Positions 6,295 through 8,129 of a DNA stretch of 32,000 nt are shown piece by piece. Origin of the DNA: Candidatus Jordarchaeales archaeon (GTDB lineage: Archaea > Asgardarchaeota > Jordiarchaeia > Jordiarchaeales > Freyrarchaeaceae). Location of the stretch: assembly GCA_038889235.1 (NCBI GenBank), contig JAWAHN010000001.1, positions 944,499 through 976,498 of the forward strand. The letters run 5' to 3'. Under the pieces are notes generated by a model. It saw only the letters and a list, made by a program, of their open reading frames with translations, made no database searches and was not told the DNA's origin. Within the stretch, counting starts at the first letter, position 1. Each line of letters starts with the position of its first letter. A program made the position numbers and the translations under genes.

Positions 6295-6497
6295 TTTGTA
6301 CGCCCTCTCGATTCCCCAAACCATCCCTAAAAATTTTTGACCAATACGCTAAATTCAGGTAATATTTTGAATATCATAACTCTTTCTTTTTAATAATTTT
6401 TACGCAAATTTCGGAATAATCTTAACGAGCAAGAAAATCAAAAGTAAAATGATTGGAAGTATTTGGTGCGGGGGGTGGGATTTGAACCCACGAACGC

Positions 6498-6513
6498 GTG
6501 CGCCCATACTGGT
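6498..6513 (-). other. tRNA intron 3 (16 nt, variable arm)
   Basis: ACCAGTATGGGCGCAC. Helix GCGT/GCGC, bulges AG|A and AC|G, inner stem CCA/TGG. Confidence 0.8.
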
Positions 6514-6543
6514 CTACGCGATGGGCTCCTGAGGCCCACCCCT

Positions 6544-6559
6544 ATGGTCATCCACGCCT
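6544..6559 (-). other. tRNA intron 2 (16 nt, position 21/22)
   Basis: AGGCGTGGATGACCAT. Helix GGTC/GACC, bulges AA|A and AT|A. Confidence 0.75.
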
Positions 6560-6564
6560 TTGAC

Positions 6565-6582
6565 TTTGCCTGCAGGACGCAT
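6565..6582 (-). other. tRNA intron 1 (18 nt, position 18/19)
   Basis: ATGCGTCCTGCAGGCAAA. Helix AGCC/GGCA (3 of 4 paired), bulges AG|A and AA|G, inner stem TGC/GCA. Confidence 0.8.
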
Positions 6583-6620
6583 CTGGCTTGGGTACCCCCG
6601 CCCAACAATCAAAATTCCAT

Positions 6621-8024
6621 TCATTTGGGTCTATTCGTGCAAACATTTTCCACTATATACTCTGCAATCTGCTCGGCTTTTTGTTTAAGTTTTTCTGTTA
6701 TGTACCCTTTAATAAATGCTTCTTCGAGCGCGTTCTTGTCTATGATTCTTAGAGTTCCGTCAGGAAGCTGCACAACGTCAATTTCTAGGTCCACATATCT
6801 TATTTTTCCAGGGTAAATTTCTATTGGGGTGTTTATGTTGTGAAATGCGCCCTTGAACTCCCCGTTTTTAGAGTAATATTCTGTTCTGAAGAACCACTCG
6901 CCTACCCTAACTCTAGTTATGCCGTAATCTCCTTCCTCTTTCGGAACGTTCAGTCCGTCATAATATCCCCCCTCAGTGAAGCTTCTCTTTACAACTATCT
7001 CCTGATCGTCCTTGTTTTGCAGTATTTTTCCGTGAAGAAACAATACTTTACCGTCAAGTTTTATGTGCTCAAAGCGCACTTTGCTCCCGTTTTTTAAAGA
7101 ATCGCTGATAGTCATTTTTTGAAGCGTTTCTTTGATCTCACTTCGCAGCTCTGGATGCTTTGAAATAAGATTTTCAGCAAAATCGACTAGAAGTGCAACA
7201 TCGCTCCCCAGTGACTTGTAGAAGTGGTGCCCGTCTATTGTTGGCGTAACGCTCCCTCTTATTTCGTCCAGTTGTTTTTTTGCGCTTGCGGGGAACTCAG
7301 CGATAACGGTTTCGTCGCCTTCCCTAATAAGTGTCGGCTCGTCTACGTTCTCTGAAAGAGAAATTATTTTCTTCAATTCTTCCCCTATTTCTTCTACTTC
7401 TTTTGTAATAAGTGAAAGGTCCGCTTTCCCCGCCGCCGTCCTGAAGATTATGCCTACCCCAGCAGGTTTCATTTTGTTACCAATCCGGTAGAGCACATTG
7501 CGTATATCTCTATCTTTAATTTTATTGCTCACCCCTACATGTCCACTGGAAGTCAGCACCACGTACTTTCCAGCAATAGCTATCTCCCCAGTCGCCTGTG
7601 GTCGCGGATCCACTTCACATATCCTTAGAAGCTGTATTTCCCCTTCTTCTTTACAGCTCCCCTTCACAGGAAGCTTCAGACATCCTATATCAGCGATTGC
7701 TCTATCTCCACGCTTACCAATTATGCGGCCAACATAGATGGCGTTTAAGTTGACTTTAGCTTTACGGATAATGACGTCTTCTAATTCCTCTCTAATTATG
7801 TTGACGACCCTTTCCAAGGGTTTTTTCTCACCTGTTATGACCACTCCCTGCCTGTTCTTTGTGTCGAAAACTTCTACATCTGGAGGTTCCATTGTCCTCT
7901 CGATTTTCAGCCTTTCAGCCAACACCGATGAACTTTGGGTGATCGATAAGCCATGTTTTAGGAAAAGCTTAGAGAGCGCCGTAGTATAGATTCCTCTAAC
8001 TCTAACCTGAATTTTTTCTTCCAA
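6621..8024 (-). CDS. fau-1: FAU-1-like RNA-binding protein / ribonuclease (RNase E/G-like N-terminus plus DUF402 C-terminus)
   Basis: N-terminal VRVRGIYTTAL, GHHFYK, C-terminal YHNINTP-like FHNINTPIEIYP..IRYVDLEIDVV. TTG 8024 follows GAGGTG. Confidence 0.85.
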   Translation of the reverse strand: MEEKIQVRVRGIYTTALSKLFLKHGLSITQSSSVLAERLKIERTMEPPDVEVFDTKNRQGVVITGEKKPLERVVNIIREELEDVIIRKAKVNLNAIYVGRIIGKRGDRAIADIGCLKLPVKGSCKEEGEIQLLRICEVDPRPQATGEIAIAGKYVVLTSSGHVGVSNKIKDRDIRNVLYRIGNKMKPAGVGIIFRTAAGKADLSLITKEVEEIGEELKKIISLSENVDEPTLIREGDETVIAEFPASAKKQLDEIRGSVTPTIDGHHFYKSLGSDVALLVDFAENLISKHPELRSEIKETLQKMTISDSLKNGSKVRFEHIKLDGKVLFLHGKILQNKDDQEIVVKRSFTEGGYYDGLNVPKEEGDYGITRVRVGEWFFRTEYYSKNGEFKGAFHNINTPIEIYPGKIRYVDLEIDVVQLPDGTLRIIDKNALEEAFIKGYITEKLKQKAEQIAEYIVENVCTNRPK

Positions 8025-8129
8025 TGCAAAACACCTCTTATCACGTCGTCTTAAAAGAAAAGAAGGTAACACCGGGGATAATTGCTTGATTAAACCAGCT
8101 AAGGTTCTTTTCTTTTCGTTATCCTTCAC

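Follow-up and report, generated by a model that had tools for sequence, protein, structure and literature searches.

Overlapping splice motifs around a 5-nt exon in the tRNA-Leu(CAG) gene of a Jordarchaeia genome and the predicted order of intron removal

The tRNA-Leu(CAG) gene of this Jordarchaeia MAG carries two D-loop introns on either side of an exon of five nucleotides. This layout raises the question of whether the two introns can be recognized independently of each other and, if they cannot, in which order they leave the precursor and how strict that order is. The first-pass annotation had answered that intron 1 must precede intron 2. Here we examine the gene within its window (the whole stretch of DNA that was analyzed, 32,000 nt), along with its orthologues, its sister Leu genes and the other tRNA genes of the genome.

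Anatomy of the tRNA-Leu(CAG) gene

Neither ARAGORN nor Rfam returned a tRNA from the raw window. With three inserts deleted, ARAGORN recovers an 88-nt tRNA-Leu(CAG) with a normal cloverleaf, including G18G19, a T loop of sequence TTCAAAT and a long variable arm. The spliced sequence and the orthologues define a gene of 138 nt with three short introns at 6464–6601 of the minus strand, the strand on which all its parts are numbered below. A custom BHB-aware cloverleaf parser was given the gene ends/acceptor and T-arm anchors alone and could skip any segment of 11–75 nt compatible with a relaxed BHB rule. Its output was a single D-region solution, which contains introns 1 and 2, and alternative D-loop parses were discarded on this basis.

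Exon 1 (6583–6601; GCGGGGGTACCCAAGCCAG) covers tRNA positions 1–18 and ends in AGCCAG, with G18 at 6583. Intron 1, 18 nt at position 18/19 (6565–6582; atgcgtcctgcaggcaaa), has an a at 6565 as its final base. Its central helix sets AGCC (6588–6585) against ggca (6570–6567), giving 3 bp and an A·A mismatch, its inner helix of 4 bp joins tgcg (6581–6578) to tgca (6574–6571), and its 3′ bulge is a-a-G19. In the relatives the intron strand of the central helix reads ggct and the helix has 4 bp. Window position 6567 is a here and t in all relatives, a change that breaks the A14–U pair of intron 1 in this genome only. The micro-exon GTCAA (6560–6564), assigned by ARAGORN on the spliced sequence and by the parser, supplies G19, U20, C20a, A20b and A21. 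Intron 2 follows, 16 nt at position 21/22 (6544–6559; aggcgtggatgaccat). The central helix of intron 2 pairs GTC (6564–6562), preceded by either G18 (6583) or the intronic a (6565), with gacc (6549–6546), and is accompanied by a 5′ bulge, A-A-a (6561–6559), and a 3′ bulge, a-t-A (6545–6543).

Exon 3 (6514–6543) begins with AGGGG at 6543 and holds the 3′ side of the D stem, the anticodon arm (CAG) and the start of the variable arm. The 16-nt intron 3 interrupts the variable arm (6498–6513), with a central helix GCGT/gcgc and an inner helix cca/tgg. Its boundary is less certain, with seven registers allowed by the parser; the junction, CGCGTAG on the 5′ side and GCGTTC on the 3′ side, is kept in orthologues. 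Exon 4 (6464–6497) comprises the end of the variable arm, the T arm, the 3′ acceptor strand, A73 and the encoded CCA (6466–6464), which is the 3′ terminus of the tRNA. Upstream, a 502-aa ORF (6621–8129, minus strand) ends 20 nt from the 5′ end of the tRNA gene; a GTATATAG box at about 6654–6647, within the end of this ORF, may be the tRNA promoter. A reading of 6582–6544 as one composite 39-nt intron was ruled out, as AGCC and gacc make two of four pairs and the product would be without G19 and the conserved GUCAA.

Leu(CAG) genes with both D-loop introns occur in four genomes of one genus only. These closely related orthologues are compared below as G000 (this genome), G001, G002 and JZ-1. 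Throughout the D region their exons do not differ, GTCAA included, and the separation of introns 1 and 2 by nothing but GTCAA (6564–6560), which the first-pass annotation had read from the sequence, is exact here and kept in the orthologues. We judge from the alignment that the intron arrangement is not a chance one, since the other three genomes of the genus keep the layout, with exons conserved and introns diverged. A pattern scan for the intron 1/GTCAA junction through public genomes and metagenomes returned, apart from Leu(GAG) genes, nothing beyond the four known orthologues of Leu(CAG), and thus added no genes to the covariation sample.

Several further observations concern the Leu genes of this group. 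The Leu(CAG) orthologues of G002 (L003) and G003 (L004) contain a fourth intron of ~17 nt in the T loop, between TTCAA and AT. Compared with Thermoproteales, whose tRNA genes have three introns at the maximum according to a 2014 review (PMC4033280), these two genes exceed the limit by one. In the same genus, tRNA-Leu(CAA) (L087, G002:C102) has zero introns, and the remaining four Leu isoacceptor genes have one to four each. A genome with the public title 'Thermoproteota archaeon' (G004; L031/L010) is placed in one family with the Jordarchaeum genomes and shares the Leu(GAG) 18/19 intron; the title probably misstates its taxonomy.

The central helix of intron 2

For intron 2, the first-pass annotation had drawn a GGTC/GACC helix that borrows its first base, G18, from exon 1, and had noted an A–C mismatch in the precursor form, AGTC/GACC. 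The base pairs of this genome agree on both counts. With G18 (6583) as the first base, GGTC/gacc has four pairs, and with a6565, aGTC/gacc has three pairs and an A·C mismatch. Across the four Leu(CAG) genes, the intron bases facing the first base and GTC are gacc, gatc, ggcc and ggct. When the first base is G18, four pairs, with G–C or G·U at this position, form in all four genomes. The last base of intron 1 is an a in every one of them, and in first position it gives an A·C mismatch in three and an A–U pair in JZ-1. The inner helix of intron 2 is 2 bp in the three relatives (g-c/c-g, g·u/c-g or g-c/u·g) and weakest in this genome, where one G·U pair is followed by a mismatch and the helix is nearly absent.

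An intron at position 21/22 is also present in Leu(UAA) of five genomes and Leu(UAG) of three. In these eight genes G18–G19 is uninterrupted, and the helices read GGTC/gact, GGTT/aact, GGTC/gacc, GGTC/ggcc or GGCC/ggct. The 18/19 intron, with helix AGCC/ggct and 3′ bulge a-a-G19, is common to Leu(CAG) and Leu(GAG). Only Leu(CAG) joins the 18/19 and 21/22 introns, and its 21/22 helix is the one split by intron 1. Intron 2 of the G002 Leu(CAG) gene and the D-loop intron of Leu(UAG) in this genome, both at 21/22, share the core ttaagt(g/t)ggcca, which suggests one intron family that spread between Leu genes.

The eight genes and the four Leu(CAG) orthologues together make a set of 12 with a 21/22 intron, in which G18 faces C or U without exception (12/12). 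Positions 20 and 20a covary with their intron partners. The compensatory pairs are GGTC/gact to GGTT/aact and GGTC/ggcc to GGCC/ggct; an exon C20a-to-U change is matched by an intron g-to-a change, and U20-to-C by a-to-g. This covariation, together with the invariable pyrimidine opposite G18, identifies the functional intron 2 helix as G18-G19-N20-N20a paired with four intron bases, in agreement with the first-pass annotation.

A competing register exists. Shifted by +1, GTCA/tgac also forms four pairs in this genome, and in the precursor a register of this type makes a perfect 4-bp helix both here and in G002. Once intron 1 is out, a 5-bp helix can form in this genome, so that the correct and the +1 registers are both possible. 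Cutting in the shifted register would lengthen the D arm by 2 nt, in the D loop, as had been pointed out in the first-pass annotation. It reaches four pairs in five of the 12 genes and is not conserved; on both grounds we discarded GTCA/tgac as the functional register.

Motif overlap and the predicted order of splicing

In the precursor, a6565 and G19 (6564) serve twice. They make up bases 2 and 3 of the intron 1 3′ bulge and at once open the intron 2 helix as its positions 1 and 2, and this two-base overlap makes the two motifs mutually exclusive on one molecule. A single endonuclease would be unable to hold both, and splicing is expected to proceed by one intron per round as a result of the overlap. 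Cutting of both introns before ligation would leave the GUCAA 5-mer with no partner other than excised intron RNA, and the 5-mer would be lost.

Local motif energies at 37 °C separate the two introns. The intron 1 motif has −5.8, −5.0, −6.7 and −6.7 kcal/mol in G000, G001, G002 and JZ-1, respectively, and the intron 2 motif in its precursor context −0.4, +0.2, +0.1 and −1.2 kcal/mol, a gap of ~5 kcal/mol between the motifs. With intron 1 removed, intron 2 reaches −4.4, −2.8, −3.9 and −1.2 kcal/mol, which amounts to a gain of 3–4 kcal/mol in three of the four orthologues and of zero in JZ-1. The dependency of intron 2 on the intron 1 splice concerns one of the four central pairs, the outermost. 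The whole precursor and the intermediates were folded with RNAfold, and base-pair probabilities were taken at 37 and at 65 °C. In these whole-molecule folds the intron 2 helix had a probability of at most 0.27 in every context and the orthologues were inconsistent; the folds are uninformative, and the thermodynamic case therefore rests on the local motifs. In Cyanidioschyzon merolae, BHB motifs of lower free energy are processed earlier, as described in section 6 of PMC3728597. By this rule, the energies given here predict that intron 1 goes first.

The course that we propose begins with intron 1, whose far more stable motif would probably be cut and ligated first. Its ligation would set G18 beside G19 and complete the 4-bp helix of intron 2. 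Ligation may be dispensable for this step, since a nicked helix could also present G18. We consider the order to be a strong kinetic preference and not an absolute requirement, in a lineage whose enzyme evidently takes 3-bp helices with an outer mismatch. Sequence and computed energies together thus indicate that intron 1 probably leaves first and that the overlap probably imposes the succession. Our main reading, to which we give a probability of about 0.55, is that Leu(CAG) contains overlapping 18/19 and 21/22 BHB introns that are spliced sequentially, with intron 1 preferred first and the order not absolute.

The splicing enzymes encoded in the genome are in keeping with such tolerance. There are two EndA paralogues of ~195 aa (G000:C1:1056164–1056754 and G000:C3:444282–444869), 33% identical, each with an N-terminal and a catalytic C-terminal domain; the second has V in place of the H of the DHAP motif of the first. 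This pair fits the (αβ)2 type of endonuclease, a type that cuts relaxed motifs according to PMC5829648 and section 7 of PMC4090602. RtcB is also encoded (score 600 bits).

The claim that intron 1 must precede intron 2 survives in part. Completion of the helix by the splice, with its energy gain in three of the four orthologues, stands; the obligation is not supported, given the A–U pair of the JZ-1 precursor and the outer mismatches tolerated elsewhere. In its strict form, correct cutting of intron 2 would await both excision of intron 1 and ligation of the exons, because the A·C mismatch would destroy the motif or divert cutting to the GTCA/tgac register. A precursor motif of about 0 kcal/mol in three of the four orthologues speaks for this, as do the perfect 4-bp wrong register in the precursors of this genome and G002, with its D loop longer by 2 nt, and the pyrimidine opposite G18, which is retained even in the four split Leu(CAG) genes. 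Against it, besides JZ-1, stands a series of introns with an imperfect outer pair. Intron 1 of the same gene has its outer A·A (A14·a) in AGCC/ggca with no upstream intron to repair it. The 32/33 intron of tRNA-Asp(GUC), the only Asp gene found by the parser, has CGGG/ccct with an outer C·U in all four genomes, and outer mismatches of the same class recur in introns of Arg(CCG) and Cys(GCA). In G002 tRNA-Met(CAU), where the intron partner is ccaa, the outer pair is mismatched in both contexts and is C·a after upstream splicing. Motifs with three of four pairs are common among Asgard tRNA introns, as reported in section 2.4 of a bioRxiv preprint (10.64898/2026.10.13.758758). We therefore regard a strictly obligatory order as unlikely.

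The same tolerance of outer mismatches could be carried to the opposite end, where a broad-specificity endonuclease takes either intron first with similar efficiency and the G18 pair is a relic of an intron that arose in genes with contiguous G18–G19. The 21/22 intron family does predate, or exist apart from, the 18/19 intron, and the intron 1 motif requires nothing 3′ of G19. But the two bases common to both motifs make simultaneous cutting impossible, ~5 kcal/mol lie between the motifs in the precursor, and a double cut before ligation would free a 5-mer that nothing holds, all of which leads us to rate the absence of a meaningful order as improbable. A gene that is decaying or non-functional in this genome, with an intron anatomy uninformative on processing, is hardly credible. 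The t-to-a change in intron 1, which breaks a pair kept by all relatives, and the weakest intron 2 inner helix of the four would agree with decay, and wobble pairing, by its general rules, would in principle allow Leu(UAG) to decode CUG. Yet the mature cloverleaf has no flaw and shows G18G19, U33, a T loop and an encoded CCA; across the four genomes the exons are identical or nearly so, and the changes by which the introns have diverged preserve pairing; and this is the sole Leu(CAG) gene found by the parser.

Five-nucleotide exons elsewhere and known splicing systems

The parser was also run across the genome. It returned 32 loci, of which five were dropped as dubious on account of their length, numerous alternative parses or an overlap with a real gene, leaving 27 tRNA genes with 61 introns. 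Genes with acceptor- or T-stem introns are not anchored by the parser, so this census is incomplete, and the requirement for at least three of four central pairs biases the helix tallies; the counts are indicative only. Within the 27 genes the internal exons measure, from the shortest, 5, 5, 5, 7, 7, 8 and 8 nt.

Two other genes share the 5-nt layout. In tRNA-Asp(GUC) (L090; G000:C1:741358–741516, plus strand), the exon TGTCA comprises U33–A37, holds the anticodon, and is flanked by introns of 16 nt (at 32/33) and 15 nt (at 37/38). G003 shows the identical layout, and the 37/38 intron is missing from G001 and G002. In the precursor the downstream helix reads aTGT/gcag, and the upstream splice turns it into CTGT/gcag. 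The tRNA-Met(CAU) gene (L091; G000:C1:907829–908038, plus strand) has four introns and a 5-nt D-loop exon, TGGAT; its downstream helix changes from aTGG/ccag to CTGG/ccag. Both genes thus have three pairs in the precursor and four with the upstream exon base joined, the precursor mismatch arising because the upstream intron ends in a. As 36 of the 61 introns end in aa, an outer mismatch is the default wherever exons are this short.

It is possible, though we advance it tentatively and with more doubt than confidence, that 5 nt marks a strict minimum for an internal exon flanked by BHB introns in these Asgard tRNA genes, at which the overlap forces a cut-ligate-cut-ligate succession. If this limit is real, the two-base overlap would ensure that the free 5-mer, which in tRNA-Asp carries the anticodon, is never released. 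Dependent motifs would then also account for part of the 'non-canonical' D-arm introns in the Asgard census. The recurrence of the layout in Leu(CAG), tRNA-Asp and tRNA-Met looks like an intron-packing rule in Asgard tRNA genes. Leu(CAG) offers a clean natural test substrate, in which one base pair decides whether the motif is complete, and the JZ-1 orthologue offers a natural control without the dependency.

Jordiarchaeia are described as having heavily interrupted tRNAs with D-arm introns missed by standard software (PMC11291895; 10.64898/2026.10.13.758758). The Asgard census preprint (10.64898/2026.10.13.758758) places 37–60% of introns at fully canonical boundaries in its section 2.4. Our gene resembles what is reported there for the same class, with roughly two introns or more in each tRNA gene, two EndA paralogues and many non-canonical boundaries. 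A term search of that preprint found no treatment of splicing order or motif overlap. If census scoring is done on the unspliced precursor, introns like intron 2 would be misclassified as relaxed.

The multi-intron pre-tRNAs of C. merolae, which include D-arm introns (Soma 2013, PMC3728597), are a second point of likeness. That organism is a eukaryotic alga, the motifs described there fold independently without overlap, and RT-PCR demonstrated the order there; the order given here is a prediction from sequence. The closest precedent is in Crenarchaeota. Some of their pre-tRNAs have nested introns in which motif dependency orders splicing, as set out in section 6 of PMC3728597 and section 7 of PMC3978253, and dependency-ordered tRNA splicing is therefore already known; the principle is not new here. 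As in the crenarchaeal cases (Sugahara 2007; Tocchini-Valentini 2009), several EndA-type introns occur in one pre-tRNA, three in this gene, and the motif of one intron would be completed by the removal of another, which would entail repeated, ordered cycles of cutting and ligation. In the crenarchaeal cases cited, however, the introns are described as nested, and the final motif is wholly unable to form earlier, whereas in this Asgard lineage the introns adjoin a 5-nt exon from either side, and just the outermost of four pairs depends on the prior splice.
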